Source: a bacterium (GTDB taxonomy: Bacteria > Sysuimicrobiota > Sysuimicrobiia > Sysuimicrobiales > Humicultoraceae). From it: 43,429 nt of DNA. Shown here piece by piece: positions 803 through 30,919 of the stretch (position 1 is the stretch's first letter; every line of letters begins with the position of its first letter). Position numbers and translations under genes: made by a program. The notes under the pieces were generated by a model. It did not search any database. It was not told the DNA's origin and saw only the letters and a program-made list of their open reading frames with translations. The stretch lies in NCBI GenBank assembly GCA_041497675.1, contig JBGQGY010000013.1, forward strand, positions 1 through 43,429. The letters run 5' to 3'.

Positions 803-1324
803 ATGGCTCAAGTTAACGCAACTGCGTCTTCTTGTTGGTTCGTCGCGCAAACGAGCGGTCGCGCCGAGCAGAGAGCCTGCGATTTCCTCAATCAGAAGGC
901 CGTAACGACGTATCTGCCGCGCTTGCTCGTTCGCCGGCGTCACGGCTCGCGGCGGTGGCAGGCGCTTGAACCGCTGTTTCCGGGTTATTTGTTCGTCCAG
1001 TTCGATCCGAGCCCCGAAACCATCTACCGCGTTCGATGGACGCCCGGGGTCGTGCGGCTGCTGGGCGACGGTGAGATGCCGATCCCTGTTTCCGATGAGG
1101 TCGTGGGGTATCTGCGGGGCCGGGAAGCACACAGTGGGTTCATTGTCCCACGGCACCCGCTCGTGCCGGGGCAGCGCGTACGATTCAAGAGTGGTCCATT
1201 CTCAATGCTCGAGGGCATCATTGAGCGGCCGGCCACTCGAGAAGATCGCGTGAGGGTGCTGCTGACTCTGGTTAACATGCAGGTAGCTGTTGAGGTGGAA
1301 GCCGACGTCCTAGAAGTCGGCTGA
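803..1324 (+). CDS. NusG-family paralog transcription antiterminator (RfaH/UpxY/LoaP-like)
   Basis: NGN domain (WFVAQT...EPLFPGYLFV...TPGVVRLLG...P.PVSD) plus KOW (PGQRVRFKSGPFSMLEG..RVRVLL). First gene of a polysaccharide locus. Confidence 0.92.
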   Translation: MAQVNATASSCWFVAQTSGRAEQRACDFLNQKAVTTYLPRLLVRRRHGSRRWQALEPLFPGYLFVQFDPSPETIYRVRWTPGVVRLLGDGEMPIPVSDEVVGYLRGREAHSGFIVPRHPLVPGQRVRFKSGPFSMLEGIIERPATREDRVRVLLTLVNMQVAVEVEADVLEVG

Positions 1325-1415
1325 TTCGGCACGGCCGCTAAGGCCGGACCGAACGAGGTCCGCAGTTTCGACCATAGATCGACCGGGATTGAGACAGCAC
1401 AAAGGGGTGAACAAT

Positions 1416-1667
1416 ATGTACCCTGATGGCGGAGCCATATCTGCCAAACGACCCGTGCTCCTACCAAACGGGGGCGACAAGGCTGCTGTGGATCATCCTG
1501 ATCCCGGGTTAAGGTCCTGCGAGACGAAACTCCTTGGCTTGATCCGCAACCGCTGGGCACTGGAGTTTGGTACGCGCGAGGTACGCCTGATGATCGAGTA
1601 CCAGGACAAAGTCCCGGTTCTGATTCGGATCACTGAGAACGTCGTCAAAGAAGAAAAGCTGAAGTAG
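1416..1667 (+). CDS. Small hypothetical protein (83 aa); C-terminal half resembles the YezD/DUF2292 pattern
   Basis: SD-like AGGGGTGA at 1403-1410 before ATG 1416. C-terminus ETKLLGLIR..EFG..V.LMIEYQDKVPVLIRITE...EEKLK. The family resemblance is judged by eye only. Confidence 0.6.
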   Translation: MYPDGGAISAKRPVLLPNGGDKAAVDHPDPGLRSCETKLLGLIRNRWALEFGTREVRLMIEYQDKVPVLIRITENVVKEEKLK

Positions 1668-1672
1668 CGACA

Positions 1673-1717
1673 GACAACTGAATAGCTTGTCCCTGACCCG
1701 TTGAGATGGGAGGGGAC
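1673..1717 (+). promoter_or_regulatory. Putative structured leader RNA / antiterminator element overlapping the terminator 5' arm
   Basis: GACAA(1673-1677)/TTGTC(1687-1691) hairpin around CTGAATAGC. GTCCC(1689-1693) can pair with GGGAC(1713-1717), enclosing CCCG/TGGG; this uses the terminator's left arm. Confidence 0.5.
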
Positions 1718-1761
1718 CGCAGGCTGCCGCCATCGCGGCAGTGCGGTCCCCTTCTTTTTTT
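1711..1761 (+). terminator. Strong intrinsic (Rho-independent) terminator upstream of the polysaccharide operon
   Basis: AGGGGACCGCA(1711-1721)/TGCGGTCCCCT(1742-1752) 11 bp, GG bulge, CTGCCGC/GCGGCAG 7 bp, CATC loop, followed by TCTTTTTTT (1753-1761). Confidence 0.9.
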
Positions 1762-1821: not shown

Positions 1822-3300
1822 ATGCGTAAGCGATCGGGCATGGCCCAAATGCCTCACAGGCTGACGGCTCTCTTAGTCGCGTTGGTGTTTCTGTCGGCCG
1901 GCGTTCCCGCCGGCGCGCAGCAGACACCGCCGCCAACCGTCGGCGGTTACATTCTTGGCTCGGGAGATGTGTTAGAAGTGTCGGTCTGGGGGTATGCTGA
2001 TCTGACGCGTACGGTTGCCGTCCGGCCCGACGGCCAGATCACGGTGCCTCTGGTCGGCACCGTGACCGCCTCTGGGGTGTCGGTGGAGGAACTGACCCGC
2101 GTCCTGACCAGGGCATACAGTGCGTTCATCCGGAATCCTCAGGTCACGGTCATCGTCAAGGAGTTCCGCAGCATCCGGATCTCCGTGCTTGGCCAGGTTG
2201 CCAAGCCGGGCTCGTACAGCCTGCCGCCAGGCTCGCGCGTGCTTGAGGCCATCTCCGCCGCCGGCGGCATCCTAAACAGCGCTCTCGTCAAAGAGGTCCG
2301 TGTCATGCGGTCGAACAGGCAGACCGTGACATTGCAGACCGACGCTTTGCTGCGGGCAGACGCTCGGAACAACCCCCAGTTGCTTGGCGGCGAGACGATC
2401 TACGTGCCCGAGGTCAACAAGCTCAGCGTGTCCATTGTCGGCCAGGTCCACCGGCCTGGTTCCTACGAGTTGCTGCCGGGCACCCGCCTTCTGGATCTCC
2501 TCTCCGTCGCCGGCGGCGTGACGGACGTCGCTGCGCTGAGGGAGGCGCAGCTCCTGCGGCCCGGGGAACAGCCCGCCGTCGTGGACCTGGAAAAAGTACT
2601 CGCAGGCGACGCTGATGCCAACGTAACTCTGCGCGGCGGTGAAACGCTCGTTGTGCGCGAGGACCTGGTCAACGTCGTGAACGTCATGGGTGAGGTCGCC
2701 CGCCCTGGGCGGTATCGGCTCAAAGGCGAGATGCGCCTGGTCGACGTTTTGCTCCTGGCCGGCGGATTGACCGATCGGGCATCCGTCACGCAGGCGCGGT
2801 TGGTGCGGGCACGAGAGTCGCAGACCCTGAACCTGGACAACCTGCTCTTGCGCCAGGACATGAATTACAACATCGTGATGCAACCCGGCGATAGCGTGTT
2901 CGTCCCTGAAGAGACCAACAACAGATTCTATGTCCTCGGCGACGTCGCCCGGCCCGGGGTCTTTACGACGAAAGGCGGTCTGACGGTGCTTCAGGCTATC
3001 GCAATGGCGGGAGGCCCGGTGCAGCGCGGTGCCAGCACCGCCAAAACCGCCCACATTATCCGCCGTACCGGCACCCCGGAGCCCGCGGTGACTGCCTCGC
3101 TGACGGGCGTGAAGGTCGAGTCCCTGCCAAACGGCGCCAGCATGGTGACCCTGGACCTGCGGGCGCTCGTGCAAGCCGGCGACACCAGGCGCGACGTCCC
3201 AATTCAACCTGGCGACGTTCTCGTCGTTCCCCAGACCACGCTCGCCGGTATGTCGGGCATCCTCAGTATTCTGTCCGGAGTCTTCTGGTTCTTCCGATGA
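1822..3300 (+). CDS. wza: Polysaccharide export protein (Wza/OPX family) with Poly_export domain and several SLBB repeats
   Basis: GGAGGT SD before ATG 1822. Signal peptide; YILGSGDVLEVSVWG...VRPDGQITVPLVG; four repeats of V.G.V..PG.(Y/F)....AGG; hydrophobic C-terminal helix. Confidence 0.9.
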   Translation: MRKRSGMAQMPHRLTALLVALVFLSAGVPAGAQQTPPPTVGGYILGSGDVLEVSVWGYADLTRTVAVRPDGQITVPLVGTVTASGVSVEELTRVLTRAYSAFIRNPQVTVIVKEFRSIRISVLGQVAKPGSYSLPPGSRVLEAISAAGGILNSALVKEVRVMRSNRQTVTLQTDALLRADARNNPQLLGGETIYVPEVNKLSVSIVGQVHRPGSYELLPGTRLLDLLSVAGGVTDVAALREAQLLRPGEQPAVVDLEKVLAGDADANVTLRGGETLVVREDLVNVVNVMGEVARPGRYRLKGEMRLVDVLLLAGGLTDRASVTQARLVRARESQTLNLDNLLLRQDMNYNIVMQPGDSVFVPEETNNRFYVLGDVARPGVFTTKGGLTVLQAIAMAGGPVQRGASTAKTAHIIRRTGTPEPAVTASLTGVKVESLPNGASMVTLDLRALVQAGDTRRDVPIQPGDVLVVPQTTLAGMSGILSILSGVFWFFR

Positions 3301-5261
3301 ACGGCGCGACAACCGTTCAGTCGGTAACGCTGGAAGAACCGGAATTCAACCTGCGCGATTTCTTCAACGTCGTCGCCAGGCGTTGGAGGATCATCGTCGC
3401 ACCTTTCGCCGTCATCGTTGGCGCCGCCGTGGGCCTGTCCCTGGCCACACCACCTGTCTACCGAGCGTCCACCACCGTGACGACCGACAAATCCCCGCCG
3501 GTCATCTTGCTGGATCGATCTGGAGAGGTCAGCATGTTCTCCGACCAGCCGGCGACACAGGCGCCGGACGTACACACGCTGGCCGAACTGATCAAGAGCG
3601 ACGTCGTCCACGATGGCGCGATGGCCCGTCTGACGCCTGGGCTGGGAGGACAGGGGGCGAATGCAGCCCTGGCGAGCTTGAACGTCCAGCCCATTCGCGA
3701 CACGGAGTTGGTGCGCGTCAGCATCGAACACACCGATCCGAACGTTGCCGCCGACGCGGCCAACGCCGTCGTGGACAGCCTGATCGACATGAACCTCAAA
3801 GCCCGCCGCCGGCGTGCGACGGAGATCCAGCATTTCATCAAGCAACAGCTTGGCCTTGCCGGCGAGAAGCTGCGAAACAGCGAGGCCGAGCTCGTGGACT
3901 ACAAGAACCGCCACGGAGACGTCTCCCTCGCCCAAGAGACCAGCCTAACCCTGCAAAAGCTGGCCGAACTGGAAGCCAAGCGGGTGGACGCCCGTCTGCC
4001 TCGGCTCGAATCAGCATCACTCGTCGCCACCCTACAGAGCCAGCTCGCGAGCCTGGAGATCGAGTTCTCCGGGCTGCAGCAACAGTTCACAGAGAAGCAT
4101 CCCGCTGTGATCAGCACCAAGGCCAAGATCGAGGAAACAAAGCGACGGCTGCTGGTTGAGACGACCCGCGATCGGCAGACCGAGCAATCTCGCGAACGCG
4201 GGATTGCCGCGGCCATCGGTCAGTATGAGGACAGAGTGCGTGGGGTGCCGACGCGCGAAGCCGAGCTGGCGCGCCTCACGCGCAACACGAAGGAGGCCGA
4301 GCAGATCTACCTGCTCCTGTCGTCCAAATTTCAGCAGGCGATCATTGCGGAGGCGTCGATTGGCAGCGCGATCCAAGTCGTGGACACGGCCAAAGCGCCA
4401 AATTCACCGGCGAAGCAGCGAGCTCGCAGGACAATGTTCTTAGGCTCGATACTCGGCCTCATGTTCGGGATGGCGGCGGCCCTCTTCATCGAGCAGCTCG
4501 ACGATGCCGTGAGGTCGGCCAAAGACGTGGAGGAGGCGCTCGGTGCCCCAGTACTCGGAGCCATCCCGCTGGTAGACGTGCGACGTGATCGCAAGAAGGG
4601 ACGCCGCCGCGGTAGTGCGCCGCCGCTGCCACTGGCGCAGATGGATCGCTCGTCGGCGCTCAGCGAAGCATGCCGTACACTGCGCACGCATGTTCTCTCG
4701 GCGCTTCCCGGCAGCAGGCACAATTGTCTGCTCGTGACCAGCGCGCTGCCGGACGAGGGGAAGAGCACAGTCGCCGTCAACCTGGCGCTGGCCCTGGCGC
4801 ATGCCGATCGTCACGTGTGGCTTGTGGATTGTGACCTGAGACGATCCCGCCTGAGCCAGCTCTTCCCGGAAGCGGAGTCGCCGGGACTGGCGGCGTTCCT
4901 CACGGGCGACGCAGTGGCCGCCGGCGTCGTCCGGCCGACGAGCCATCCGGGGCTGTCGTTCGTGGCGAGCGGGCCGACCGCGTCAAACGCCGCTGAGCTC
5001 CTGGATAGCCCCCGTCTGGCGCGTTTCATCGAGGAGGCGCGTACCGGGGCTGATGTGGTGCTGCTCGATAGTCCCGCGGTGATGCCTGCAACTGACGCTG
5101 AGGAGATCGGCCGCAGGGTTGACGGCGTCCTGCTGGTGGTTCGGGCAGGCAAGACTGACCGGAGCGCTCTGGTCGAAGTACGGCACCGCATGGAACGGGT
5201 CGGAGCACGGATTGTGGGGGCCGTCCTGAATGGCGCTCCCGAGGGCCCATGGCGTTACTAG
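3297..5261 (+). CDS. wzc: Wzc/GumC-like polysaccharide co-polymerase with BY-kinase domain
   Basis: N-terminal Wzz region and TM (RRWRII...PVYRAS), coiled coil with KHP motif, second TM, Walker A SALPDEGKST, A' VDCDLRR, B LLDSP. ATGA overlap with upstream gene. Confidence 0.92.
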   Translation: MNGATTVQSVTLEEPEFNLRDFFNVVARRWRIIVAPFAVIVGAAVGLSLATPPVYRASTTVTTDKSPPVILLDRSGEVSMFSDQPATQAPDVHTLAELIKSDVVHDGAMARLTPGLGGQGANAALASLNVQPIRDTELVRVSIEHTDPNVAADAANAVVDSLIDMNLKARRRRATEIQHFIKQQLGLAGEKLRNSEAELVDYKNRHGDVSLAQETSLTLQKLAELEAKRVDARLPRLESASLVATLQSQLASLEIEFSGLQQQFTEKHPAVISTKAKIEETKRRLLVETTRDRQTEQSRERGIAAAIGQYEDRVRGVPTREAELARLTRNTKEAEQIYLLLSSKFQQAIIAEASIGSAIQVVDTAKAPNSPAKQRARRTMFLGSILGLMFGMAAALFIEQLDDAVRSAKDVEEALGAPVLGAIPLVDVRRDRKKGRRRGSAPPLPLAQMDRSSALSEACRTLRTHVLSALPGSRHNCLLVTSALPDEGKSTVAVNLALALAHADRHVWLVDCDLRRSRLSQLFPEAESPGLAAFLTGDAVAAGVVRPTSHPGLSFVASGPTASNAAELLDSPRLARFIEEARTGADVVLLDSPAVMPATDAEEIGRRVDGVLLVVRAGKTDRSALVEVRHRMERVGARIVGAVLNGAPEGPWRY

Positions 5262-6118
5262 AAGCCACCCGGGAACAGCGACGTTATCCGGAGCCCGCGC
5301 CGACGGTCGTGATCCGGCCGACCAGAGGATGGGCGTTCCTCGACGTCCGAGAACTATGGGCCCACAACGAGCTCATCTACTTCCTCACCGCTCGCAACAT
5401 CAAGGTCCGATACAAACAGGCGACGATCGGCATCGCGTGGGCCGTCCTGCAACCGCTCGCGATGATGGCCGTGTTCACGCTGTTCTTCGGGCGGTTGGCT
5501 CACTTGCCCTCGGCGGGCGCTCCATACCCGCTGTTTGCGTACGCGGGGTTGCTGCCCTGGCAGCTCTTCTCCCGGGCCATCACTGAGTCGACGAATAGTC
5601 TCATCATGCACCAGCGGCTGATCACACGGGTGTATTTTCCGCGAATCATCATCCCGATCTCAGTGACGCTCGCCGCGCTGGTCGACTTTGCGATCTCTGC
5701 CGTCCTGCTGCTGGGGCTCATGCTGGCGTATGGATTCAGACCAGGGGCTGCGGTCCTTTGGTTGCCGGTCTTCGTCCTGCTGCTGCTCTTGACGGCGTTC
5801 GGTGTTGGATTCTGGTTGTCGGCCCTCAACGTCGAGTTCCGCGACGTGGCCCAGGCCATGCCGTTTCTCAGCCAGTTGTGGCTGTTCGTGACGCCAGTGG
5901 TCTACCCCAGCAGCCTTGTCCCGGAGCAGTGGCGAGTGCTGTATGGGTTGAACCCGATGGCCGGCGTGGTCGAAGGCTTTCACTGGGCGCTGCTCGGCGC
6001 CGGGCCGGCACCCGGACCGATGCTGGCAGTCTCGAGTGCAGTGGCCGTCGGACTGTTCGTTAGCGGAATCGCCTGGTTCCGCCGCAGAGAACGCACCTTC
6101 GTGGATGTGGTCGGGTAG
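5249..6118 (+). CDS. wzm: ABC-2 type polysaccharide transporter permease (Wzm)
   Basis: IKVRYKQATIGIAWAVLQP, RVYFPR, TPVVYP, LNPM motifs; about 6 TM segments; ends FVDVV. Confidence 0.93.
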   Translation: MALLEATREQRRYPEPAPTVVIRPTRGWAFLDVRELWAHNELIYFLTARNIKVRYKQATIGIAWAVLQPLAMMAVFTLFFGRLAHLPSAGAPYPLFAYAGLLPWQLFSRAITESTNSLIMHQRLITRVYFPRIIIPISVTLAALVDFAISAVLLLGLMLAYGFRPGAAVLWLPVFVLLLLLTAFGVGFWLSALNVEFRDVAQAMPFLSQLWLFVTPVVYPSSLVPEQWRVLYGLNPMAGVVEGFHWALLGAGPAPGPMLAVSSAVAVGLFVSGIAWFRRRERTFVDVVG

Positions 6119-6120
6119 CT

Positions 6121-7368
6121 ATGGCCGCCGTGGCCGTCAGGGCAGAGGGGCTGAGCAAGCGCTACCGGATCGGGCAGAGAGTGCCATACAAGACGATTCG
6201 GGATACGCTGGCCGGCGCGATCTCAGCGCCATTCCGCTGGGGCCCGGCAGCGCTGAAACGCTCGGCCGCTCGGAACGGAGACCAAAATACCATCTGGGCG
6301 CTCAAGGACATCTCGTTCGAGGTCGGCGTCGGGGAGGTCGTGGGTCTCATCGGCCGCAATGGGGCCGGTAAGAGCACACTGCTGAAGATTCTCTCGCGCA
6401 TTACCGAGCCGACTGAGGGCGTTGCCCAACTCTATGGGCGCGTCGGCTCGCTGCTGGAAGTGGGCACCGGCTTTCATCCAGAACTGACCGGGCGCGAGAA
6501 CGTCTATCTCAATGGCGCGATCCTGGGGATGAAGCGGTTAGAGATCGACCGCAAGTTCGACGACATTGTGGCCTTCGCCGAGACGGAGAAGTTTCTCGAT
6601 ACACCGGTGAAGCACTACTCGAGCGGCATGTTCATGCGTCTGGGCTTCGCGGTCGCGGCCCACCTCGATCCGGAAATCTTGCTCGTCGATGAAGTCTTGG
6701 CTGTCGGCGACGTGGCTTTCCAGCGCAAATGCATGGAAAAGATCCGAGACGTGGCCCGGGGCGGGCGCACGGTTCTGTTCGTCAGCCATCGGATGAACTC
6801 CGTTCGGACGCTGTGCGGCCACTCGATCTGGCTGGAGGCGGGGCAGGTGAGAATGTCGGGCCCGACGGCCGAGGTCGTGAATGCCTACGAAGCAAGCTTG
6901 ACTGTCACGGACTCGGAGAGATGGGCGACCCGGGATGCGAATTCGGTCGCGCAGTTCCGTGGCTGGGAGATTGTTGAACCCCGTTCCGAACAGCCACACG
7001 TGTTAGAGACACAGGGCCCGCTCACTGTGAAGGTTGTCGTCGACGTGCGTTCCCCCATCCGGCATGGCGTTCACGCCATCAGTCTATGGAATACGGACGA
7101 CGTGTTGATTTGGGGATGGGCGACCGATGGCATCAACCTACCACCGGGAGTTCATGCCTTCATGTGCGATCTTCCGGGTTTGCCCTTGAAGCCCGGCGCG
7201 TATTCGTGGCGCGTCGGTCTCTACAGCGACGGATACCTTCTCGATCGGTGGCATTGTGTGCCGCAGATGATCATTGCCACGGCCGCGCTTGGGGACCGCC
7301 GAGACGAGTGGTCGGGACTGTTGAACATCCCGTGCGGATTCCGCGTGGTCGAGGACCGCCATTCGTGA
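6121..7368 (+). CDS. wzt: Polysaccharide ABC transporter ATP-binding protein (Wzt) with C-terminal Wzt_C-type domain
   Basis: Walker A GRNGAGKST, GFHPELTGREN, signature YSSGM, Walker B ILLVDEVL; about 150-aa beta-rich C-terminal extension. Confidence 0.94.
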   Translation: MAAVAVRAEGLSKRYRIGQRVPYKTIRDTLAGAISAPFRWGPAALKRSAARNGDQNTIWALKDISFEVGVGEVVGLIGRNGAGKSTLLKILSRITEPTEGVAQLYGRVGSLLEVGTGFHPELTGRENVYLNGAILGMKRLEIDRKFDDIVAFAETEKFLDTPVKHYSSGMFMRLGFAVAAHLDPEILLVDEVLAVGDVAFQRKCMEKIRDVARGGRTVLFVSHRMNSVRTLCGHSIWLEAGQVRMSGPTAEVVNAYEASLTVTDSERWATRDANSVAQFRGWEIVEPRSEQPHVLETQGPLTVKVVVDVRSPIRHGVHAISLWNTDDVLIWGWATDGINLPPGVHAFMCDLPGLPLKPGAYSWRVGLYSDGYLLDRWHCVPQMIIATAALGDRRDEWSGLLNIPCGFRVVEDRHS

Positions 7369-8084
7369 GCCACGCCATTACCATACAGATTCACGTACCG
7401 GGTTGGTTTCTCCGTCGGTTGCGCCACGGAAAGGCCCGACTGAAGGGAGCGTCCAGGGCTGTCGCGTCACCACCGGACCTGGCTGGGGACCGCGACGTGG
7501 AATGGTCCTGGGTCGCGTCTCATATGCCGGCCGGCCCTGGAGAGGCGTTGGATTTTGGACCGGGCGGCAGCCATCTCGGGCTCGTGGCCGCGCACAGAGG
7601 CTTCAGGGTCACGGCCCTCGATCTCCAGCCGGTGAACTGGTCGTACGTCCATCCCGGGCTCCGTTTCGTCCAGGGCGATCTCTTGACGCTGCCGTTCCCC
7701 AAACACCTTTTCGACCTGGTCGTTAACTGCTCGACCGTTGAGCACGTAGGGCTTACTGGACGGTACGGCGTGAGTGAACCTCGGCCGGACGGAGACCTCG
7801 AAGCGATGGCCTACCTCCGCACGCTAATGAAACCGAGCGCCACCATGCTGCTGACCGTTCCTGTGGGGCGGGATGCCGTGGTTGGGGCATTGCATCGCGT
7901 GTATGGGGCGCAACGATTGGAGAGACTGTTGGCGGGATACGTGATCGAAGAGCAGCAGTTTTGGTCGAAGGATTCTCAGAACGCCTGGACGCTTGTCGAT
8001 CATCGAGACGCGTTAATGGTCGATCCTGGGGCGCAGACGTACGGGCTGGGATGCTTTGTGTTGGCGCGCGGAATGGGCGGGTAG
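7365..8084 (+). CDS. Class I SAM-dependent methyltransferase, DUF268-like
   Basis: GTG start overlaps the wzt stop (GTGA). ALDFGPG motif I; STVEHVGLTGRYG...DGDLEAM...LTVPVGRD...HRVYG matches the DUF268-type pattern. Confidence 0.75.
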   Translation: MSHAITIQIHVPGWFLRRLRHGKARLKGASRAVASPPDLAGDRDVEWSWVASHMPAGPGEALDFGPGGSHLGLVAAHRGFRVTALDLQPVNWSYVHPGLRFVQGDLLTLPFPKHLFDLVVNCSTVEHVGLTGRYGVSEPRPDGDLEAMAYLRTLMKPSATMLLTVPVGRDAVVGALHRVYGAQRLERLLAGYVIEEQQFWSKDSQNAWTLVDHRDALMVDPGAQTYGLGCFVLARGMGG

Positions 8085-8085
8085 A

Positions 8086-8952
8086 ATGGTCACCATATTT
8101 GCTGTCCCAAAACCCTTCACGGGCCACATCGGAATCATCCAGCGAAACGCCATTCGCAGCTGGTCTAGGCTCCACCCGCGTGTAGAAGTCATTCTGTGCG
8201 GAGATGAACCGGGGACCAAGGAGATGGCGGACGAGGTGCACGCGACGTACCTGCCGCACGTAATCCGCAACCAGTACGGCACGCCCTTGCTGAACTCCGT
8301 GTTTGAACAGGCCGAACGAGCGGCCCACTCGCGGCTGATGTGTTACGTCAACGCCGATATCGTGCTGTTGGGCGACTTTGCGACGGCCATGCAGCGGATC
8401 GGGTTCCCCAGGTTCCTGATGGTCGGTCAACGTTGGGATGTCGACCTCACGGAATCGTGGGATTTTGAACAACCCGGTTGGGAGGGCGCGCTCCGCAGTC
8501 TCGTCGCGGCGCGGGGAAGACTGCATCCGCCAATGGGCAGCGACTACTTCGTGTTTCCGAGGAATCGCGGCGTGGCAACGCTGCCGCCCTTCGCCGTGGG
8601 GCGTCCCGAATGGGACAACTGGTTCATTTACCATGCGCGGCGGCATCGAGTACCTGTGATTGACGCAACGCGGGTGGCGACGGTCATTCACCAGAACCAC
8701 GGGTATGATCATGTGCCTGAACGCCGTGATGACACGTGGGAGGGGCCGGAGGCCGACTGGAATCGCAGTCTCGTCGGGCGCCGTGAGCATATCTACGTTC
8801 TCTCCGATGCGTCACATGTGCTGACGCCGAAATGGCTGATGCCAACGGTGGGGTTGAAGCTGAAGAGGTTGGCTCGTGCCGGCATCCAACGGTGTCGTCG
8901 CTCCCCATCCCTGTCACGTGCGTATCATCGCCTGAGGCAACGGTTGATTTGA
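8086..8952 (+). CDS. Putative GT-A fold glycosyltransferase-like protein
   Basis: KPF.GHI.IIQRNAI.SW, YVNADI, GSDYFVFP, GRPEWDNW, HQNH motifs; embedded in the operon. Confidence 0.6.
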   Translation: MVTIFAVPKPFTGHIGIIQRNAIRSWSRLHPRVEVILCGDEPGTKEMADEVHATYLPHVIRNQYGTPLLNSVFEQAERAAHSRLMCYVNADIVLLGDFATAMQRIGFPRFLMVGQRWDVDLTESWDFEQPGWEGALRSLVAARGRLHPPMGSDYFVFPRNRGVATLPPFAVGRPEWDNWFIYHARRHRVPVIDATRVATVIHQNHGYDHVPERRDDTWEGPEADWNRSLVGRREHIYVLSDASHVLTPKWLMPTVGLKLKRLARAGIQRCRRSPSLSRAYHRLRQRLI

Positions 8953-8953
8953 C

Positions 8954-9817
8954 GTGATGGCGGCCGTCTCTGTTGTGATGCCGACGTATAACCGGGGCCC
9001 GGTCATTTGGCGTGCGCTCCACAGCGTGGTGGCGCAAACGTGGCGCGATCTCGAGGTGATCGTGGTCGATGATGCGTCCACCGACGAGACGGTGGGCGTA
9101 CTGACCGAGCAGACTCGGGGAGACTCGCGTGTTCGCCTGGTACGGCATGCGCAGAATAAGGGGGCGCAGGCCGCACGCAACACGGGCATCAAGATCGCTC
9201 ACGGCGAGTGGATAGCGTTTCTGGATTCTGACGACGTGTGGTTTCCAGACAGCCTCGAGGTGAGACTGGACGAGGCCACGCGCACCGGGGCGCGGGTCGT
9301 GCATTCGGAGTGTGACGTGCTCGAGGCAGGTGCGAAGGACGCTCGGCCGTTCGGCGTCCCGCCTATGAAAGGTCGGATCTATGCGGAACTGCTTCGACGT
9401 CCCGGTCCCATGTTTCAGGGCTTGCTCGTGCGAAAAGAGGCCCTCATCCGCATTGGCTACCTCGATGAGAGTCTGATTGCGTATCAAGAATGGGACACGG
9501 CGATCAGACTTGCACGCCACGATGCATTTGCGTACGTGTCGACACCGACGTTTACTTACGATTGTCGCTCGGATGACGCGATCTCGCGGCACCGGCTTCG
9601 CGCAGCCGTCGCGTATGAGCGGATCATCACAAAGCATCGGTGGCCAATTCTTCGCCACCTGGGGCCAAAGGCACTGGCAACGCACTTTCGAACGGCCGCC
9701 GGACTGTATAGGGCCGCGAACCACGCCGGTGAGGCCCGTCGATGCCTGCGGACGGCATTTCTCTTGTGGCCCTTTCGACCGAGAGCGATCCTGCGTCACC
9801 TGCAGCGCTTTGCATAG
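8954..9817 (+). CDS. Glycosyltransferase family 2
   Basis: VSVVMPTYNR, VVDDASTD, ARNTG, FLDSDD. Confidence 0.92.
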   Translation: MMAAVSVVMPTYNRGPVIWRALHSVVAQTWRDLEVIVVDDASTDETVGVLTEQTRGDSRVRLVRHAQNKGAQAARNTGIKIAHGEWIAFLDSDDVWFPDSLEVRLDEATRTGARVVHSECDVLEAGAKDARPFGVPPMKGRIYAELLRRPGPMFQGLLVRKEALIRIGYLDESLIAYQEWDTAIRLARHDAFAYVSTPTFTYDCRSDDAISRHRLRAAVAYERIITKHRWPILRHLGPKALATHFRTAAGLYRAANHAGEARRCLRTAFLLWPFRPRAILRHLQRFA

Positions 9818-9839
9818 TCCATTGGCGACGCGGTAGACG

Positions 9840-11174
9840 ATGAGAATCGGCGTTGTTCCTGTCTCAAAGAGCGGTGGTGTCTATCAATACAGCGCCACCA
9901 TGCTTTGGGCTCTCGAGGGGCAGGTGGCGGATGGGGACGACGACGAGTTTCTTGCGTTTGTCGACGAGACGCAGCATCCGTATGCGGTGGGGTTGCGGCA
10001 GCGTGGGTGGACAACGAGGGCCATCGATCCACCGTCGCAGAGGCGGCGGGTGTGGGAGCGCCGGGCTTTGCGGGCATTACGCCAGGCTGCGGGCGAGGGC
10101 AGGGTTCGCGGCGGCTGGAGATGGCTCAAGCGCACGCTTGGGCACGCGCCTGGCCAGGACAAGGCGAGTTTGCCTGACCCCGACAGGGTCCGGTACCGTC
10201 CGGACATGAGCCGCTGGTTCCGGCAGTGCGGAGTTGAACTCATGCTCTACCCGTGGCCGAGGTCGCTGGCCTTTGAAGTCGACATTCCGTACGTGATGGC
10301 GATTCATGATCTGCAGCACCGGCTTCAGCCAGAGTTCCCCGAAGTATCGGCGAACGGGGAATGGGAGTGGCGTGAGTACTGCTTCCGTAACGGGGCACGG
10401 TATGCCACGTCACTCCTGGCTGATTCTGAAGTGGGCAAGGAAGACATCCTCAACTTCTACGGCGCGTACGGCGTGACATCGGACCGCGTAAAAGTCCTGC
10501 CGTTTCTTCCAGCCTCGTACCTTGCTGGCGAGGTATCCGAAGACGAGCGGGTGCGGCTGCGAACGACCTACCAGTTGCCCGAGCGGTATGTCTTCTACCC
10601 TGCTCAGTTCTGGCCACACAAGAACCACGCCGGCATCGTTCGAGCACTGGCACTGTTAAAACACGAGCATCGGCTGAGGGTTCCGGTCGTCTTTTGCGGT
10701 GCTTATAGTGGCGAGATCCGATCTCGCACCTTCCGAGAAGTCATGACGGTCGCGCGGCAATTGGGAGTCGACAATCAGGTCCAGTACCTTGGTTTCGTCC
10801 CGGACCAGGATATGTCTGGTCTCTATGCGGGGGCCGATGCGCTGGTCATGCCGACTTTCTTCGGTCCGACCAATATCCCTGTGCTCGAAGCCTGGGCGTT
10901 CGCCTGCCCCGTCCTCACGTCAGACATTCGGGGCATCCGGGAGCAAGCCGAGGACGCGGCGGTATTGGTCGATCCACGATCAGTGGAAGCGATCGCCGAT
11001 GGGATCTATCGACTCTGGACCGATGCGACGCTCCGGGATAGGCTGGCCGAGCGAGGCCGACGGCGTCTCGCCGGCTATGGTCCCGATGACTATACCCGTC
11101 GACTGAGAGAAATACTGGACGACGCAAGAGAGCGGGTGCGCTCCGACGCCAGAGCAGCCCTTCTGAGCTCCTGA
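9840..11174 (+). CDS. Glycosyltransferase family 4 (MtfB/WbdB-like)
   Basis: IHDLQH, YPAQFWPHKNH, PTFFGPTNIPVLEAW. Confidence 0.9.
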   Translation: MRIGVVPVSKSGGVYQYSATMLWALEGQVADGDDDEFLAFVDETQHPYAVGLRQRGWTTRAIDPPSQRRRVWERRALRALRQAAGEGRVRGGWRWLKRTLGHAPGQDKASLPDPDRVRYRPDMSRWFRQCGVELMLYPWPRSLAFEVDIPYVMAIHDLQHRLQPEFPEVSANGEWEWREYCFRNGARYATSLLADSEVGKEDILNFYGAYGVTSDRVKVLPFLPASYLAGEVSEDERVRLRTTYQLPERYVFYPAQFWPHKNHAGIVRALALLKHEHRLRVPVVFCGAYSGEIRSRTFREVMTVARQLGVDNQVQYLGFVPDQDMSGLYAGADALVMPTFFGPTNIPVLEAWAFACPVLTSDIRGIREQAEDAAVLVDPRSVEAIADGIYRLWTDATLRDRLAERGRRRLAGYGPDDYTRRLREILDDARERVRSDARAALLSS

Positions 11175-11211
11175 TTCGACTGACGCCGGACACGAAGTGG
11201 AGGACGCGCGC

Positions 11212-11673
11212 ATGAAGACGATGGATGGGTCGCCCGATGAAGTGTGGGATGGAGAGCGCCTGATCGCGCTCATCATTCGGGCCTCCTACCAGGCAGAGGG
11301 GATCATGTTCTTCACGGACCGGAGCCTCTCGCAGCAGCTCGGATACATGCGACGGCCGAGGGGATACGCGATCGGCGCGCATGTCCACAACAAGCTGCAT
11401 CGGAACGTCGAGTACACGCAGGAGGTCCTGATCATCCGCAAGGGACGGCTCCGGGTCGACCTCTACGACGCGGAGCACCGGTTCCTGACGGATCGAATCC
11501 TGGAGCCTGGGGACATCATCCTCCTCGCATCAGGCGGGCACGGGTTCGAGATGTTGGAAGAGGTGGAGATGGTTGAAGTCAAGCAGGGGCCATATGCTCC
11601 AACGGATGACAAGACGTTCTTCACACCTGCTCGGTCGCGGGGCGAGCAACGCCTGGCATCGGTGAAGCCATGA
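11212..11673 (+). CDS. Cupin-fold protein
   Basis: GGAGGA SD; HVH...TQEVL.I.KG.L...GDIILL..GGHGF cupin-type motifs; coupled to the DegT gene. Confidence 0.75.
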   Translation: MKTMDGSPDEVWDGERLIALIIRASYQAEGIMFFTDRSLSQQLGYMRRPRGYAIGAHVHNKLHRNVEYTQEVLIIRKGRLRVDLYDAEHRFLTDRILEPGDIILLASGGHGFEMLEEVEMVEVKQGPYAPTDDKTFFTPARSRGEQRLASVKP

Positions 11674-12806
11674 CGTCGATCACGTCTGAGGAACTCACAA
11701 TCCCCGTCAACGAGCCGGTTCTCGGCACGAGCGAGCTGGCCTACGTAAGGGAAGCTGTCGAAACAGGATGGATCTCATCGGACGGTCGGTTCGTCGGCGA
11801 GTTCGAGCGGGCGTTTGCGGCGTTCTGCGGACGTCGGCACGGCGTGGCCGTGTGCAACGGCTCGGCTGCGTTGGAGGTGGCGACCGCCGCGGTCAATCTC
11901 CAACCGGGGGATGAAGTCATCCTGCCGACATTCACGATCATCGCCTGCGCGGCCGCCATCATCGAGCGCGGAGCGATTCCGGTTCTCGTGGATAGCGAGC
12001 CGGACACCTGGAACATGGATACACACCAGATCGCCGACCGGATCACGCCCCGCACACGGGCGATCATGCCCGTCCACATTTATGGGCACCCGGTGGATAT
12101 GGACCCGCTGCTCGAACTTGCCGGAGCACACCATCTTATGGTCATCGAAGACGCGGCCGAAGTGCACGGGGCCGAGTACAGGGGACGCCGCTGCGGATCG
12201 CTCGGGGATGTCAGCACCTTCAGCTTTTACGCCAACAAGATCATCACCACTGGGGAAGGCGGCATGCTGGTCACGGATGACGATGCCCTCGCGGAGCGAT
12301 GCCGGCTTCACCGAAACCTCTGCTTCCAGGGCCCGCGTCGGTTCGTCCACCAGGAGTTGGGACGGAATTTTCGGATGACGAACCTGCAGGCAGCCGTCGG
12401 CGTGGCGCAGATGGAGCGGATCGAGCAGTCGATCGCCAAGAAGCGGTGGATCGGGCAGTCGTACACTGAGCATCTCCAGGGGATCCCCGGGCTCCTCCTA
12501 CCTATCGAGCGGCCGTGGGCCAAGCATGTGTACTGGGTCTACGGCTTGGTTCTCGATGACACCGTGCCATTCGACGCAACAGAGTTTGCTCGTCGGCTGG
12601 CCGCGCGTGGCGTGCAGACACGCCCCTTCTTCTGGCCGATGCACGAACAACCCGTGTTCCGGCAGATGGGACTGTTCCTCAACGAGCGGTACCCGGTCGC
12701 CGAGAGGCTTGCCCGCCGCGGGCTGTACCTGCCATCGGGTATGGCCCTGACGGAAAGCCAACTTGGCCATGTCTGCGACGCGGTCCGCGCGGTGCTCAAG
12801 GTATGA
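11670..12806 (+). CDS. DegT/DnrJ/EryC1/StrS aminotransferase (GDP-perosamine synthase-like) #1
   Basis: IPVNEP, VHIYGHP, IEDAAE.HG, FSFYANKIITTGEGG, GLYLPSG. Confidence 0.92.
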   Translation: MTSITSEELTIPVNEPVLGTSELAYVREAVETGWISSDGRFVGEFERAFAAFCGRRHGVAVCNGSAALEVATAAVNLQPGDEVILPTFTIIACAAAIIERGAIPVLVDSEPDTWNMDTHQIADRITPRTRAIMPVHIYGHPVDMDPLLELAGAHHLMVIEDAAEVHGAEYRGRRCGSLGDVSTFSFYANKIITTGEGGMLVTDDDALAERCRLHRNLCFQGPRRFVHQELGRNFRMTNLQAAVGVAQMERIEQSIAKKRWIGQSYTEHLQGIPGLLLPIERPWAKHVYWVYGLVLDDTVPFDATEFARRLAARGVQTRPFFWPMHEQPVFRQMGLFLNERYPVAERLARRGLYLPSGMALTESQLGHVCDAVRAVLKV

Positions 12807-13573
12807 GCGGCGTGGCTGCATTTGAGGCATACGCCGCCTTCTATGACGCCTTGTATCGTGACAAGGACTATGCGGGCGAATGCGACGTCCTCGAACGGAT
12901 CTTCGAGCGTTTCGCCGTGTCACCGGTGCGGCAGATTCTCGACGTCGGATGTGGTACCGGGGGGCACGCGATCGTCCTGGCATCCCGGGGTTACGCCGTC
13001 ACGGGCGTGGATCGCTCGGGCCAGATGCTGGCCGTCGCTCGCGCGAAGGACCACCCGCGCGAGCCAAATGTCCTATTTGAAGAGGCGGATATCCGCTCGT
13101 GGCGTGGGGGGAGGACGTGGGACGCGGCCCTGGCGATGTTCGCGGTCCTCTCCTACCAGGTTGACCATGACGACGTGGCAGCGGTGATCGAGAGCGTGAG
13201 GATGCACCTTGCTCCTCAGGGGCTCTTCGTCTTCGACATCTGGTTCGGCCCCGGAGTCTTGACCGAACCGCCGAGCGAGCGCACCAAGGAGACGCGCGAG
13301 CACGGTCATGAGATCACCAGGTACGCGTCGCCGCACCTTGACCTCGTCCGGCAGACGGTTGACGTCGATTACTTCATTACCGATGTGAATGGCCAGGGGA
13401 TGGTCCGGCGAGTCCGCGAGACTCACCGGATGCGATTCTTCTTTCCTAACGAACTGGACCTACTGCTGACGGCAGGTGGGTTCCGCCTTGTCCGCTTGTG
13501 TCCGTTTGGGCAGCTGGACGAGCCAGTGCAACGCGAGACCTGGAACGCGACAGTCATCGCCCAGGCCGTATAG
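12803..13573 (+). CDS. Class I SAM-dependent methyltransferase (sugar N-methyltransferase-like N-terminus)
   Basis: FYDALYRDKDYAGE, ILDVGCGTG, GVDRS..ML. Confidence 0.85.
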   Translation: MSGVAAFEAYAAFYDALYRDKDYAGECDVLERIFERFAVSPVRQILDVGCGTGGHAIVLASRGYAVTGVDRSGQMLAVARAKDHPREPNVLFEEADIRSWRGGRTWDAALAMFAVLSYQVDHDDVAAVIESVRMHLAPQGLFVFDIWFGPGVLTEPPSERTKETREHGHEITRYASPHLDLVRQTVDVDYFITDVNGQGMVRRVRETHRMRFFFPNELDLLLTAGGFRLVRLCPFGQLDEPVQRETWNATVIAQAV

Positions 13574-13575
13574 AC

Positions 13576-14880
13576 ATGGTCCCCACACCCTTGCGCGTGG
13601 CAATAAACGCCCAAATCTATCCGCTGGAGACGTTTGGAGGCGTCGCCACGACGCTTACTGGCCTTGTTCGATCACTGGGGACGCTCGACGGACCAGAGGA
13701 GTACGTGATCATTGGACCGTGGCAGGAGCCCGAGTGGCTGCGACCCTTTCTGGGGCCGAACCAGCGCATCGTCTCCGGTCCTCTGCCGCCGCGCCGTCGG
13801 CTTACCAGTGTTGTCGAACGGCTGCGCTCCGTATCCAGTCGGCTCCGCGCGCGCGCGGCCCGACCCGCGGCCGGAGCAGAAAAGTATCGGGCGCCCGTCT
13901 CAGATGGGTTCTACGAGCGGCTGGGATGCGACATGATCCATTTTCCGGATGTGGAATTCGTCGTATCTCGGTTGCCCGCGATCTACAACCCCCATGATCT
14001 CCAGCACCTGCACTTTCCTGAGTTCTTTACGCCCAAGGCCCTGATGTGGCGGGCCGCCTACCATCCGACTGGATGCCGGCTGGCGCATACAGTGGTGGTG
14101 GAGTCCCGGTGGGTCAAGGACGACATCGTGAAACAGTTTGGGCTCGATCCAAAGAAGATCCAGGTCATCCCCCTGGCCCCACCCACACAGACGTACCCGG
14201 AGCCATCTGTCGACGCCCCGAGTCACGTGCTGAACACCTACAGGCTCGAGCAGCCGTTCGCGCTCTATCCGGCGCTTACATGGCCGCACAAGAACCACGT
14301 CCGGCTCCTCGAGGCGCTCGCGCTCCTGCGCGACCGGCACCAGGCTCGGGTGAGGCTGGTCTGCACGGGTTATCAGAACAACTTTTGGCCACAGGTCGAG
14401 CGCCGGCTGCGGGACTTGGGACTCCAGGATCAGGTCAGGTTCCTCGGGATGATTCCCGCCGAGCATCTGCGAGCGCTCTACCGGCTTGCGCAGTTTGTCG
14501 TGATCCCGACGCTTTTTGAAGCAGCGAGCGAGCCAGTCTATGAGGCGTGGCACGACGGCGCACCGGTCGCCTGTTCCAATGTGACGTCCCTACCGGCACA
14601 GGCCGGCGATGCGGCATTGATCTTCGATCCTCTCTCCGTCGAGTCGATTGCCGCGGCTGTGGGAGAGATGGCGACAAACGCGCAATTGCGCGAGGCCCTG
14701 ATGCGGCGAGGTGCCGCGCGATTGAGGAACTTTAGCTGGGAGCGCACCGCGAAAGCGTACCGGGCCGTATACCGTCGGGCTGCGGGACGCGCTTTGACCG
14801 AGGAGGACCGATGGCTGCTGACGTGGGACTGGATGCAAGACACGAAAGAAGAACAGTCACCGGCACAGCGCGCGGGCTAA
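13576..14880 (+). CDS. Glycosyltransferase family 4 (MtfB-like), paralog of 9840-11174
   Basis: HDLQH, YPALTWPHKNH, PTLFEAASEPVYEAW, FSWERTA. Confidence 0.88.
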   Translation: MVPTPLRVAINAQIYPLETFGGVATTLTGLVRSLGTLDGPEEYVIIGPWQEPEWLRPFLGPNQRIVSGPLPPRRRLTSVVERLRSVSSRLRARAARPAAGAEKYRAPVSDGFYERLGCDMIHFPDVEFVVSRLPAIYNPHDLQHLHFPEFFTPKALMWRAAYHPTGCRLAHTVVVESRWVKDDIVKQFGLDPKKIQVIPLAPPTQTYPEPSVDAPSHVLNTYRLEQPFALYPALTWPHKNHVRLLEALALLRDRHQARVRLVCTGYQNNFWPQVERRLRDLGLQDQVRFLGMIPAEHLRALYRLAQFVVIPTLFEAASEPVYEAWHDGAPVACSNVTSLPAQAGDAALIFDPLSVESIAAAVGEMATNAQLREALMRRGAARLRNFSWERTAKAYRAVYRRAAGRALTEEDRWLLTWDWMQDTKEEQSPAQRAG

Positions 14881-15992
14881 GCCAGCCGCGAGTCATACCG
14901 GTCGCCGCACCCGTCCTCGCGGGCAACGAGCAGGCGTATGTTTTGGACTGCCTGCAGTCCACCTGGATTTCCGCGCATGGGGAATACGTCGGCCGATTTG
15001 AAACCGCGTTCAGCGAGTTCTGCGGGGCACGGCACGCGATCTGCTGTTCGAGTGGAACGGCCGCGTTACATCTCGCGCTTCTGGCTCTCGCCGTTGGACC
15101 CGGGGACGAGGTGCTCGTCCCGACCCTGACCTTCGTGGCGACGGCCAACGCGGTGACCTTTTGCGGCGCCCGGCCAGTTTTTATCGACGCCGAGTCGAAG
15201 ACCTGGAATGTCGATCCGTCACTGCTCGAGGCGAGGATCACTCCTCGTACGAAGGGTATTGTCGCCGTGCACCTGTATGGTCACGCGGCAGAGATGGACT
15301 CTGTGCTCGCCGTCGCTCAACGCCATGGCCTGTTTGTGATCGAGGACGCGGCGGAGGCTCACGGCGCCCAGTACCGCGGCCGGCCCGTGGGCACGTTTGG
15401 CAACATGGCGACCTTCAGTTTCTCCGGCAACAAGACGATCACCACCGGCGAAGGCGGCATGGTTGTCACCGACGATGCCGCGCTGGCAGCCAAGGTGTGT
15501 CAGCTGAAGGCGCAGGCGATGGACCCAACCCGGCGCTACTGGTTCCCGCGCATCGGTTTCAACTACCAACTGACGAACATTGCCGCGGCGATAGGACTGG
15601 CCCAAATGGAGATGGCGAGCTGGCACGTGCAGCGTCGCCGCCAGATCGCATCGTGGTATCGTGAGGATCTTGATGGGGTCTCGGGCATCACCCGGCAGGC
15701 CGAGCAACCATGGGCCAGCCATGCGTACTGGATGTTTAGTGTTCTCTTGGATGAGGCTGCAGCCGACCGTGACGCCGTCATGGCGCGGCTCGCCGAGCGG
15801 GGCATCGAGACTCGTCCCGTGTTCTACCCGCTACATACGCTGCCGCCATACCGTGCCGGCGCCGCCGACTCGGCGTTGCCCGTCGCCGAGCGGATCGCGC
15901 GGCGCGGGCTCAGCCTGCCCACCTGGGGCGGCTTGACCCGCGAGGACGTCCACTACGTGTCGGAGTGCTTGCGGGACTGCCTGGGGCAATGA
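14811..15992 (+). CDS. DegT/DnrJ/EryC1/StrS aminotransferase (perosamine synthase-like) #2
   Basis: AGGAGG at 14801-14806 before ATG. IPVAAP, VHLYGH, IEDAAEAHG, FSFSGNKTITTGEGG, ETRPVF. Start position uncertain (overlaps the upstream gene). Confidence 0.9.
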   Translation: MAADVGLDARHERRTVTGTARGLSQPRVIPVAAPVLAGNEQAYVLDCLQSTWISAHGEYVGRFETAFSEFCGARHAICCSSGTAALHLALLALAVGPGDEVLVPTLTFVATANAVTFCGARPVFIDAESKTWNVDPSLLEARITPRTKGIVAVHLYGHAAEMDSVLAVAQRHGLFVIEDAAEAHGAQYRGRPVGTFGNMATFSFSGNKTITTGEGGMVVTDDAALAAKVCQLKAQAMDPTRRYWFPRIGFNYQLTNIAAAIGLAQMEMASWHVQRRRQIASWYREDLDGVSGITRQAEQPWASHAYWMFSVLLDEAAADRDAVMARLAERGIETRPVFYPLHTLPPYRAGAADSALPVAERIARRGLSLPTWGGLTREDVHYVSECLRDCLGQ

Positions 15993-16936
15993 CGCTGCCA
16001 CGTGAACCGCTCGTTTCTATAGTCACGCCGTCCTTCAATCAGGGAGGCTTTATCGCCGAGACGATCGCCTCGGTCCTGGGCCAGGATTATCCCCATGTGG
16101 AGTACCTGGTCGTCGATGGCGGCTCGACAGATGGGACCCTAGACATCCTGCGCCGCTTCGGTCACCGGTTGAGCTGGAGCTCAGAACCCGACCGAGGGCA
16201 ATCGGACGCCATCAACAAGGGCTGGCGCGGGACTCACGGAGAGATCATCGCCTGGCTGAACGCCGATGATCTGTATCGGCCGTCTGCCATCACGAAGGTG
16301 GTCGCGTTCTTCCAGCAACATCCAGACATCGACCTTGTCTATGGTGACTGCGACTTTATCAACGAGGGCGGCGATGTCCTAGGGCGACACCATAAGGGGC
16401 AGGCCAGCGCTGCCGATCTGGTGCGGTCGCCCGTGAGCCTTATCCTTCAGCCCGCGGCGTTCCTCCGCAGGCGCGTGCTGGAGAGCGTCGGCTACCTGGA
16501 CGAAACGCTTCAATTCATCATGGACATGGAATACTGGCTACGGGTGGCCTCTCGGCACAACATTTCGCACCTTCCTGAGTGCCTCGCGGCCTTTCGTGTT
16601 CATGGGGGATCGAAGTCCGGTCGCCAGTCTCAGCGCTTCGAGGACGAGCGCCTGCGTGTCTACGAGCAGTTCTTCAAATCTCCGACTGTCCCGGATCATC
16701 TCAAACGACTCGAACGAGAGGCTATGCGCAACGTATACTCGCGGGCCGCGAATGATCACTTTCTAGCAGGCGATATGAAACAAGCCCAACACTTTGCCGC
16801 GGTCTCATGGCGGTACCTTCCGCTGAGGCCTCAACGCATCCAACTGAAGGTGCTGGTGCTGGGCCTGGCCGGGTCCCGGGGGGTACGGCTGGCGGCATGG
16901 CTCAGGAATTTTGCCGGAGCTGCCGGCGGGCTGTGA
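15989..16936 (+). CDS. Glycosyltransferase family 2 (WcaE/WfgS-like)
   Basis: VSIVTPSFNQG, VDGGSTDGT, EPDRGQSDAINKG, WLNADD; ATGA overlap. Confidence 0.92.
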   Translation: MTLPREPLVSIVTPSFNQGGFIAETIASVLGQDYPHVEYLVVDGGSTDGTLDILRRFGHRLSWSSEPDRGQSDAINKGWRGTHGEIIAWLNADDLYRPSAITKVVAFFQQHPDIDLVYGDCDFINEGGDVLGRHHKGQASAADLVRSPVSLILQPAAFLRRRVLESVGYLDETLQFIMDMEYWLRVASRHNISHLPECLAAFRVHGGSKSGRQSQRFEDERLRVYEQFFKSPTVPDHLKRLEREAMRNVYSRAANDHFLAGDMKQAQHFAAVSWRYLPLRPQRIQLKVLVLGLAGSRGVRLAAWLRNFAGAAGGL

Positions 16937-16962
16937 GACTCGGCCGTGGCGAGGGCTAGACG

Positions 16963-18024: not shown

Positions 18025-18054
18025 CGATCTGCCATCAACGGGGAGCAACCATCC

Positions 18055-19146: not shown

Positions 19147-19153
19147 GGGTCTT

Positions 19154-21819: not shown

Positions 21820-21825
21820 TGACGG

Positions 21826-25312: not shown

Positions 25313-25377
25313 AGACTCATTCCTGCAAGGCTTCAAACCTACTGACGTTTCTATCGCATCGAGGGGGTGTGGTATCC

Positions 25378-26373: not shown

Positions 26374-26408
26374 GTTCGTACCGGATACGTTTGAGGACGG
26401 TGATAACG

Positions 26409-29104: not shown

Positions 29105-29122
29105 ATCGCGCCCACCTAGAGT

Positions 29123-30892: not shown

Positions 30893-30902
30893 ACGACGAA
30901 GA

Positions 30903-30919
30903 GGTGCGGTCGCCGCACC
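30903..30919 (+). terminator. Small GC hairpin just after the last polysaccharide gene (possible terminator or stabiliser)
   Basis: GGTGCGG-TCG-CCGCACC; no U-tract. Confidence 0.3.

Follow-up and report, generated by a model that had tools for sequence, protein, structure and literature searches.

The 29-kb polysaccharide operon in the stretch of DNA analyzed here (43,429 nt, hereafter the window) appears, on balance, to lie behind two separable read-through devices stacked at one locus: a specialized NusG paralog acting at an ops-like element, and a small protein acting at an RNA hairpin that competes with an intrinsic terminator. Sequence comparison establishes the order of the parts, their conservation, the mutually exclusive pairings predicted for the RNA and the separability of the two devices (Table 1), and it makes a role for the small protein in binding the hairpin, and thereby blocking the terminator, more likely than one as a NusG cofactor.

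Table 1. Features of the locus, with coordinates in the window and the evidence for each.
Feature	Position	Strand	Basis
Specialized NusG paralog (NGN + KOW), member of a lineage-specific clade	803..1324	+	Pfam, cut-offs, PDB match, tree
Predicted RNA hairpin, candidate pause hairpin	1404..1424	+	Stem upstream of ops-like element, conserved among paralog loci
Small ORF, conserved core ~1497-1667 (helix + beta-hairpin)	1416..1667	+	Homologs, purifying selection, structure model
Ops-like element GGCGGAGCCATA (consensus GGCGGAGCYRTG)	1428..1439	+	Enrichment after paralog genes; sole copy in window
Conserved box CAACTGAATA (CAACUGAAUA box; consensus CAACYGMATA) upstream of hairpin	1675..1684	+	Alignment A6
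Predicted antiterminator hairpin with GA/A internal loop	1689..1717	+	Covariation over 22 copies; core common to DUF2292 loci
Predicted intrinsic terminator	1708..1761	+	Folding energy; equivalent stem in relatives with complete sequence
25-gene polysaccharide cluster	1822..30892	+	ORF list and Pfam

Results

The locus and its polysaccharide cluster

The window is contig C13 of genome G000, in which the end of a DNA ligase gene precedes the NusG paralog gene and 25 co-directional ORFs, beginning with wza at 1822, reach 30892 (29.07 kb). Besides wza and wzc the cluster holds an ABC transporter pair, glycosyltransferase, aminotransferase, methyltransferase, wzy-like, epimerase and UDP-sugar dehydrogenase genes and a glycosyltransferase family 4 initiator gene, and 23 of the 25 ORFs have Pfam matches suiting polysaccharide synthesis, modification or export. 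An initial annotation had described a NusG paralog, a small ORF, a hairpin, wza and about 25 co-directional genes over ~29 kb in that order, and both the layout and the extent are borne out. Terminator-like matches within the cluster do not rise above those in shuffled sequences. None is seen at the junction (30892/30893) with the sugar uptake and catabolism genes that continue co-directionally past the cluster (window 30893-42884). Genes for an ABC-2 exporter pair and for a Wzy-like polymerase occur together in the cluster (window 5249-7368 and 19109-20632), suggesting two polysaccharide pathways within one operon.

No promoter was located for the locus. Scanning for the sigma70 consensus, from which the lineage's own promoters may deviate, revealed no sigma70-like promoter before wza, and in two relatives (L054 and L057) merely 19-24 nt separate the terminator from the SD. 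The separate wza promoter between 1762 and 1821 that the initial annotation had set against a gating terminator did not emerge from these comparisons.

A specialized NusG paralog and its ops-like element

The 173-residue product of the paralog gene belongs to the NusG family (Pfam PF02357, E 1.4e-18), and RfaH is its best match both in the PDB (E 8e-13) and in NCBIfam. It scores below the cut-offs for RfaH (TIGR01955, 104.2 vs 144.5 bits), LoaP (NF033641, 70.8 vs 125 bits) and UpxY (NF033644, 67.4 vs 100 bits), and below the curated cut-off for NusG (44 vs 135.7 bits). Elsewhere in the genome, on other contigs, are the housekeeping nusG gene and a further NusG paralog. The second paralog (G000:C33:24246-24731), of another clade, follows a wzc-like gene, precedes a UDP-sugar dehydrogenase-like gene and has its own GGCGGAGCTGTA site 84 nt past its stop, without a small ORF; with one site consensus common to both paralogs, the question of cross-talk arises.

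Up to 300 nt past the stop codon, GGCGGAGC is found at 48 of 52 paralog loci and at 0 of 21 housekeeping nusG loci, against a chance expectation of 0.014 per 300 nt; the 52 were scored out of 55, two being too short and one lacking the gene, and two of the 48 positives are duplicates. The remaining 46 distinct copies give the consensus GGCGGAGCYRTG, with T at position 11 in 42/46 (vs 64/379 background GGCGGAGC sites) and T11G12 in 28/46 (vs 18/379); at position 12 the window's site carries A in place of G. The element occurs beside paralogs both with and without the small ORF. It contains the mini-hairpin GCGNAGC (GCGGAGC in the window), which is described as an unusually stable DNA mini-hairpin (PMC13037366). 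The exact canonical E. coli core, by comparison, is missing: the ops sequence is given as 5'-GGCGGTAGCGTG-3' (PMC11880322), and a search downstream of the paralogs for canonical ops, GGCGGTAG, found the exact string GGCGG[AT]AG in 0 of 30 loci within 400 nt, the variant GGCGGAGCYRTG standing there instead.

A stem of at least 5 bp ending 2-6 nt before the element is present at 37 of the 46 distinct paralog loci and at 155 of the 379 genomic GGCGGAGC sites, with mean energies of -11.1 and -7.8 kcal/mol, respectively; the window's own upstream hairpin is weak (-5.8). Between paralog and element there is no enrichment of sigma70-like promoters (mean score 5.4 vs 5.2 in shuffled sequence, 44 loci). 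In the Bacteroides opsX element, a GCG-AGC non-template hairpin and an RNA pause hairpin are reported to recruit UpxY (PMC11685472). We therefore predict with considerable confidence that 1428-1439 is the pause and loading site of the NusG paralog. The initial annotation had placed that loading site at 1670-1761, an assignment that gives way to this separate element accompanying nearly all paralogs.

At L095 (G024:C275:836-1924, minus strand) two tandem cassettes, each of ops-like site, small ORF and hairpin/terminator, lie behind one paralog, and the second ops-like site reads GAGCGGAGC; at L056 (41-634 and 2152-2754) the paralog and ops-like site occur twice within 2 kb, and the small ORF follows the second only.

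The small ORF encodes a conserved protein

The ORF runs from ATG 1416 to the stop at 1667 (83 aa), with an alternative start at GTG 1488 (59 aa). An in-frame ATG at the position of 1416 is found in only 3 of 18 scored copies (four further loci were missed by the pattern and one lacks upstream DNA), and just 9 of the 18 keep an open frame between the ops-like element and the core, which leaves the true start codon uncertain. The last ~51 codons are a real gene, with a core under purifying selection: a comparison of 21 copies gives 0.18/0.13/0.43 for differences at the three codon positions, and single-base codon changes number 3378 synonymous vs 951 non-synonymous. The initial annotation had seen here an 83-aa ORF with a good SD. 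The ORF and its conserved core are real, the 83-aa start is lineage-limited, and the SD (AGGGGTG, 1403-1409) doubles as the 5' arm of the conserved hairpin that precedes the ops-like element.

The protein has 17 close homologs and more distant ones, two candidates (P0025 and P0026) having been excluded as repeat artefacts. The close homologs are labelled 'Armatimonadota bacterium' at NCBI, a lineage that we take to be Candidatus Sysuimicrobiota. Neither the small ORF nor 14 members of its family have a Pfam or NCBIfam match, UpxZ included. The structure model is confident (pLDDT 89.7) and consists of a helix and a beta-hairpin (H7-19 E26-36 E39-52). Its best match among 48,161 solved chains is not significant (Z 3.6, rmsd 6.5, 53 aligned), nor is any in a viral library (best E 1.6). 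The ESM Atlas gave just sub-0.9 leads, to unnamed phage clusters, and for the distant homolog P0037 the nearest named cluster is DUF2292 at 0.76, a label carried by 30% of its members. No protein relatives were found on viral contigs; three pattern matches there fall inside coding sequence and were taken as chance.

A predicted terminator with a competing hairpin precedes wza

The 18-bp hairpin and T7 tract that the initial annotation had read as a terminator before wza are well supported: the core stem (1711-1752, with a 2-nt bulge and a 4-nt loop) starts 44 nt past the small-ORF stop, the T7 tract occupies 1755-1761 and the folding z is -6.6. The structured segment noted as running into the terminator can be specified further, since the RNA can fold either as the terminator or as a competing hairpin, GUCCCU-GA-CCCG(loop)UGGG-A-GGGGAC, whose 3' arm overlaps the terminator 5' arm at 1708-1717 and makes the two pairings mutually exclusive. 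The predicted energies are -48.6 kcal/mol for the terminator form and -38.6 kcal/mol for the form constrained to the antiterminator, so that termination is likely the default. Over 22 copies of the competing hairpin, 97% of cells are paired and 3 of 11 pairs have changed on both sides, a degree of pairing that exceeds shuffle and slide controls and is inflated by related sequences. The upper stem of the terminator varies freely in sequence and length among relatives, several of which have interrupted U-tracts (5-9 T in 12 nt). We consider it highly probable that 1689-1761 is a terminator/antiterminator switch, as predicted from these pairings.

No Rfam family reaches its gathering score in the window, and 1300-1850 gives chance-level matches only; across 11 related loci Rfam returns one, unrelated, SAM riboswitch. 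Genome G000 contains 18 strict hairpins, and two of them have an overlapping terminator under a loose rule, the one in the window and a doubtful one on contig C151. The gene after the element is often wza, and elsewhere a GAF/HD-domain or zinc-ribbon gene. At L094:1003-3340, L056:3087-4431 and L097:1-1908 the hairpin/terminator stands before GAF or GAF+HD-domain genes, a possible link to cyclic-dinucleotide signalling.

The hairpin is shared with DUF2292/YezD genes

Of 80 DUF2292/YezD genes from various phyla, 37 have the strict hairpin core behind them and 50 the relaxed core, leaving 30 genes without even the relaxed hairpin; these 80 are the best of 571 matches and are rich in Bacillaceae. 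Upstream, reverse-strand and distant controls gave 0, 0 and 0 for the strict core and 2, 0 and 4 for the relaxed core, with fourth control values of 0.05 and 2.7. The first outer pair, unused for selection, is kept in 41 of 42 loci in the GA/A register and in 0 of 42 in the alternative register, varying between G-C and A-U, and a terminator overlaps the hairpin in 33 of the 42 under the loose rule. The CAACYGMATA box, by comparison, is present in 18 of 22 elements of the small-protein family and in 2 of 38 DUF2292-linked hairpins. RNA model R1 recovers the DUF2292 hairpins of the sister family at E 1-4 only, yet as the top five matches in 129 kb. In many Bacillaceae loci (within L100-L179) the stop codon of the DUF2292 gene and the hairpin overlap, and L102 has the SAM riboswitch on the opposite strand.

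The protein comparison points the same way and is suggestive only. None of 14 core members of the small-protein family matches PF10055, nor does any protein of genome G000, and the distant homolog P0037 scores 13.6 bits vs a gathering score of 22 (E 0.051). Aligning the small-protein profile to the DUF2292 set with hhalign gives a weak match (E 4.7e-4, probability 32%). With the same profile, 47 of 91 DUF2292 proteins and no reversed sequence exceed the 99th percentile of shuffled scores, and the reverse test places just 6 of 77 above the shuffle threshold. Models of the two proteins share the order of secondary structure, helix and beta-hairpin. The small protein is thus a probable remote relative of DUF2292/YezD, to which the shared RNA hairpin is a stronger link than protein homology.

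A sister family has true DUF2292 genes that lie two genes ahead of wza, with this hairpin core and a terminator behind them and a response regulator, not a NusG paralog, as their neighbour. The order in this parallel gate (L044-L049, family f5) is response regulator, DUF2292 gene, hairpin/terminator, short unnamed gene and wza. The DUF2292 gene copy in G051 has an in-frame stop.

Conservation and separability of the two devices

The small protein is encoded in 9 of the 94 genomes of the class, all of one family, and R1 finds the element in the same nine and in none of the other 85; R1 was built from loci of those nine, so that the co-occurrence is partly circular, and the genomes are kin and not independent. 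Within these limits the synteny that the initial annotation had predicted holds, small ORF and RNA motif being conserved together beside related paralogs. A wider protein profile added one weak match among the 94 genomes (E 0.009), and thirteen metagenome loci hold further copies. A loose pattern search matched 92 of the 94 genomes and was too unspecific to use.

All copies of the small ORF with upstream DNA follow a NusG paralog gene, directly or as the second tandem cassette, and most paralog loci are without a small ORF. In a FastTree phylogeny of 53 sequences, small ORF and hairpin fall mainly in one paralog clade. They are absent beside three paralogs at the base of that clade (L013-L015), and at L053 they accompany a 38%-identical paralog from a different clade. 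In G051 and G060, a same-clade paralog with its ops-like site occupies one locus and a DUF2292 gene with the hairpin another. That the two devices exist apart at all these loci argues against a single three-part machine. At L013 and L014, the ops-like site behind the same-clade paralog is followed by one shared gene unrelated to the small ORF.

Discussion

Proposed mechanism

Transcription would start upstream of 803, and RNA polymerase would pause at about T1438, where the paralog could bind the GCGGAGC mini-hairpin of the non-template strand and ride along with the enzyme, giving processivity over the 29 kb as RfaH and UpxY do for their operons. With no ligand bound, the leader would adopt the terminator form, which has a predicted advantage of ~10 kcal/mol. 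Translated from this very transcript, the small protein would occupy the 1689-1717 hairpin for the ~35 nt that polymerase needs to complete the terminator 3' arm, and the bound hairpin would prevent the overlapping terminator from forming before wza, a positive-feedback on-switch. That the small protein is the ligand of the predicted antiterminator hairpin seems to us reasonably probable.

A more speculative extension, which we put forward as a doubtful possibility, joins the two devices into an AND gate in one leader, with the paralog and the small protein both required for the 29-kb transcript. The paralog, at an ops variant inside or just before the small ORF, might, as we tentatively suppose, aid translation of that ORF, because the SD is buried in the pause hairpin. 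Since the small protein would open the terminator, only paralog-bearing polymerases in cells already holding the small protein would make the full transcript. The small protein could then, no less speculatively, be a divergent member of an undescribed class of minimal (~55 aa) RNA-binding antiterminators of the DUF2292 type found across bacteria.

Relation to known systems and alternative explanations

In Bacteroides, as here, a NusG paralog, UpxY, heads a polysaccharide operon and is followed by a second regulatory gene, and the opsX element is described as an ops-like pause site that combines a non-template GCG-AGC hairpin with an RNA pause hairpin lying upstream (PMC11685472). However, opsX lies in the leader before upxY, whereas the site here follows the paralog gene; UpxZ inhibits non-cognate UpxY (PMC11685472), whereas the small protein has no Pfam relation to it and goes with an RNA switch; and the paralog falls short of the UpxY cut-off. 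The E. coli ops element has the same 12-nt length and G1G2..T11G12 frame, but its T6 is missing here (GGCGG-AGC), the RfaH gene stands alone whereas the paralog gene sits in the operon (PMC7819879, PMC7593976, PMC11880322), and only here does an intrinsic terminator with a competing hairpin follow. The LoaP/dfn leader resembles this one in that a NusG paralog lies upstream of a long operon and the leader contains an RNA hairpin and an intrinsic terminator (PMC12691694). In contrast to LoaP, the hairpin here overlaps the terminator and the paralog is below the LoaP cut-off; the LoaP UNCG hairpin is not found in window 506-802 or 1325-1821, and occurs in 2 of 13 relatives, at unrelated places.

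By analogy with LoaP, the paralog loaded at the ops-like site could override the terminator alone, with the small protein modulating in the opposite sense or inhibiting the genome's other paralog as UpxZ would. In vitro, LoaP alone is reported to be sufficient for passage through leader terminators (PMC12691694), UpxZ provides a precedent for an inhibitory second gene, and the second paralog of this genome has an ops-like site of its own. Yet this explanation accounts neither for the conserved competing hairpin nor for its recurrence after DUF2292 genes across phyla, no UpxZ match is found by Pfam and most paralog loci do without the small ORF, and we consider it rather unlikely.

The initial annotation had paired the NusG paralog with the small protein as its dedicated cofactor and had both load at 1670-1761. 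The invariable position of the small ORF behind a paralog, mostly of one clade, is what this model would lead one to expect, and the nearly family-specific CAACYGMATA box could be a NusG-linked determinant. We nonetheless hold it to be distinctly unlikely, given that a separate ops-like site is present, that the module stands beside the other-clade paralog of L053 and is missing from three same-clade loci, that at L094 a copy of the RNA element precedes the paralog gene and that the hairpin follows DUF2292 genes.

Translation-coupled attenuation, in which the fold would depend on a ribosome reaching the end of the small ORF and hardly on the peptide made, draws on the proximity of the hairpin core to the ORF stop (23-44 nt in 12 of 20 copies) and on the overlap with the stop codon in many Bacillaceae DUF2292 loci. 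The distance is, however, 80-216 nt in 5/20 and 1.1-2.8 kb in 3/20, and the protein shows purifying selection and a confidently predicted fold; we regard this explanation as very improbable. The most distant copies, together with the duplication of the element in L058 and L094, fit a diffusible factor.

Of similarly low probability is a plain terminator that ends a short nusG-ORF transcript, with wza served by its own promoter: the terminator is strong and the lineage's promoters may escape a sigma70 consensus scan, but no promoter-like site was found, 19-24 nt between terminator and SD in L054 and L057 leave little space and the alternative hairpin is conserved. A small-molecule riboswitch (e.g. 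for a cyclic dinucleotide) with the small gene as a passenger is the least credible explanation, for although a conserved unpaired box precedes the hairpin and the element stands before GAF/HD-domain genes (L056, L094) and a GAF-domain gene (L097), no Rfam family is found at threshold, the conserved core is just ~30 nt and the element was not found in those of the 94 genomes that are without the small protein.

DUF2292/YezD/OscA proteins (PF10055) share with the small protein and its locus the CU-GA-C..G-A-GG hairpin core overlapping a terminator, the size, the helix and beta-hairpin model, the FG..QD..V pattern and a basic-acidic C-terminus. From these the small protein differs in lying below the Pfam threshold and in a strand four residues longer, and its locus differs in the specific loop, the CAACYGMATA box and the place behind a NusG paralog and ops-like site. 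The BglG/LicT/SacY systems with their RAT hairpins (PMC5393181) offer a further parallel. There a small hairpin is stabilized by a protein and overlaps and blocks a terminator. The arrangement predicted here is alike, with a protein-bound hairpin over a terminator, but the small protein has no Pfam match to that family and no regulatory domains, and the RNA sequence is another; neither a CAT RNA-binding domain (Pfam; the ORF and 14 family members) nor a RAT sequence (Rfam) was found. Bipartite conAn antitermination also opens a very long operon with a protein gene and, behind it, an RNA element, but ConAn1 has 172 aa and conAn2 is described as a large, processively acting RNA (PMC8191782), whereas a ~55-aa core and a ~30-nt hairpin are predicted here to act on one overlapping terminator; identity with conAn was rejected on size. 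As far as can be judged from sequence, the parts would work like UpxY/opsX and RAT-type protein antiterminators but fall outside each of these groups in the sequence comparisons for membership.

Significance

How most specialized NusG paralogs are recruited has been stated to be unknown (PMC7593976), and GGCGGAGCYRTG with its upstream hairpin constitutes a precise candidate recruitment site for a whole paralog clade. The literature searched contained no polysaccharide operon controlled in series by an elongation factor that confers processivity and an RNA switch specific to one site. Searches on DUF2292/YezD/oscA and on small proteins with NusG paralogs likewise brought up neither the hairpin nor the layout, and the second device, small protein and hairpin switch, is apparently undescribed in print, although the motif may be listed in a catalogue of RNA motifs published in a supplement or subscription paper. 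If our interpretation of that device is true, it gives a function to DUF2292/YezD, a family of unknown function in many phyla, as a minimal RNA-binding antiterminator, and the same hairpin in Bacillus-type loci makes this reading accessible in culturable hosts. The tentative AND gate, if true, would be a bistable capsule switch that works without DNA inversion.
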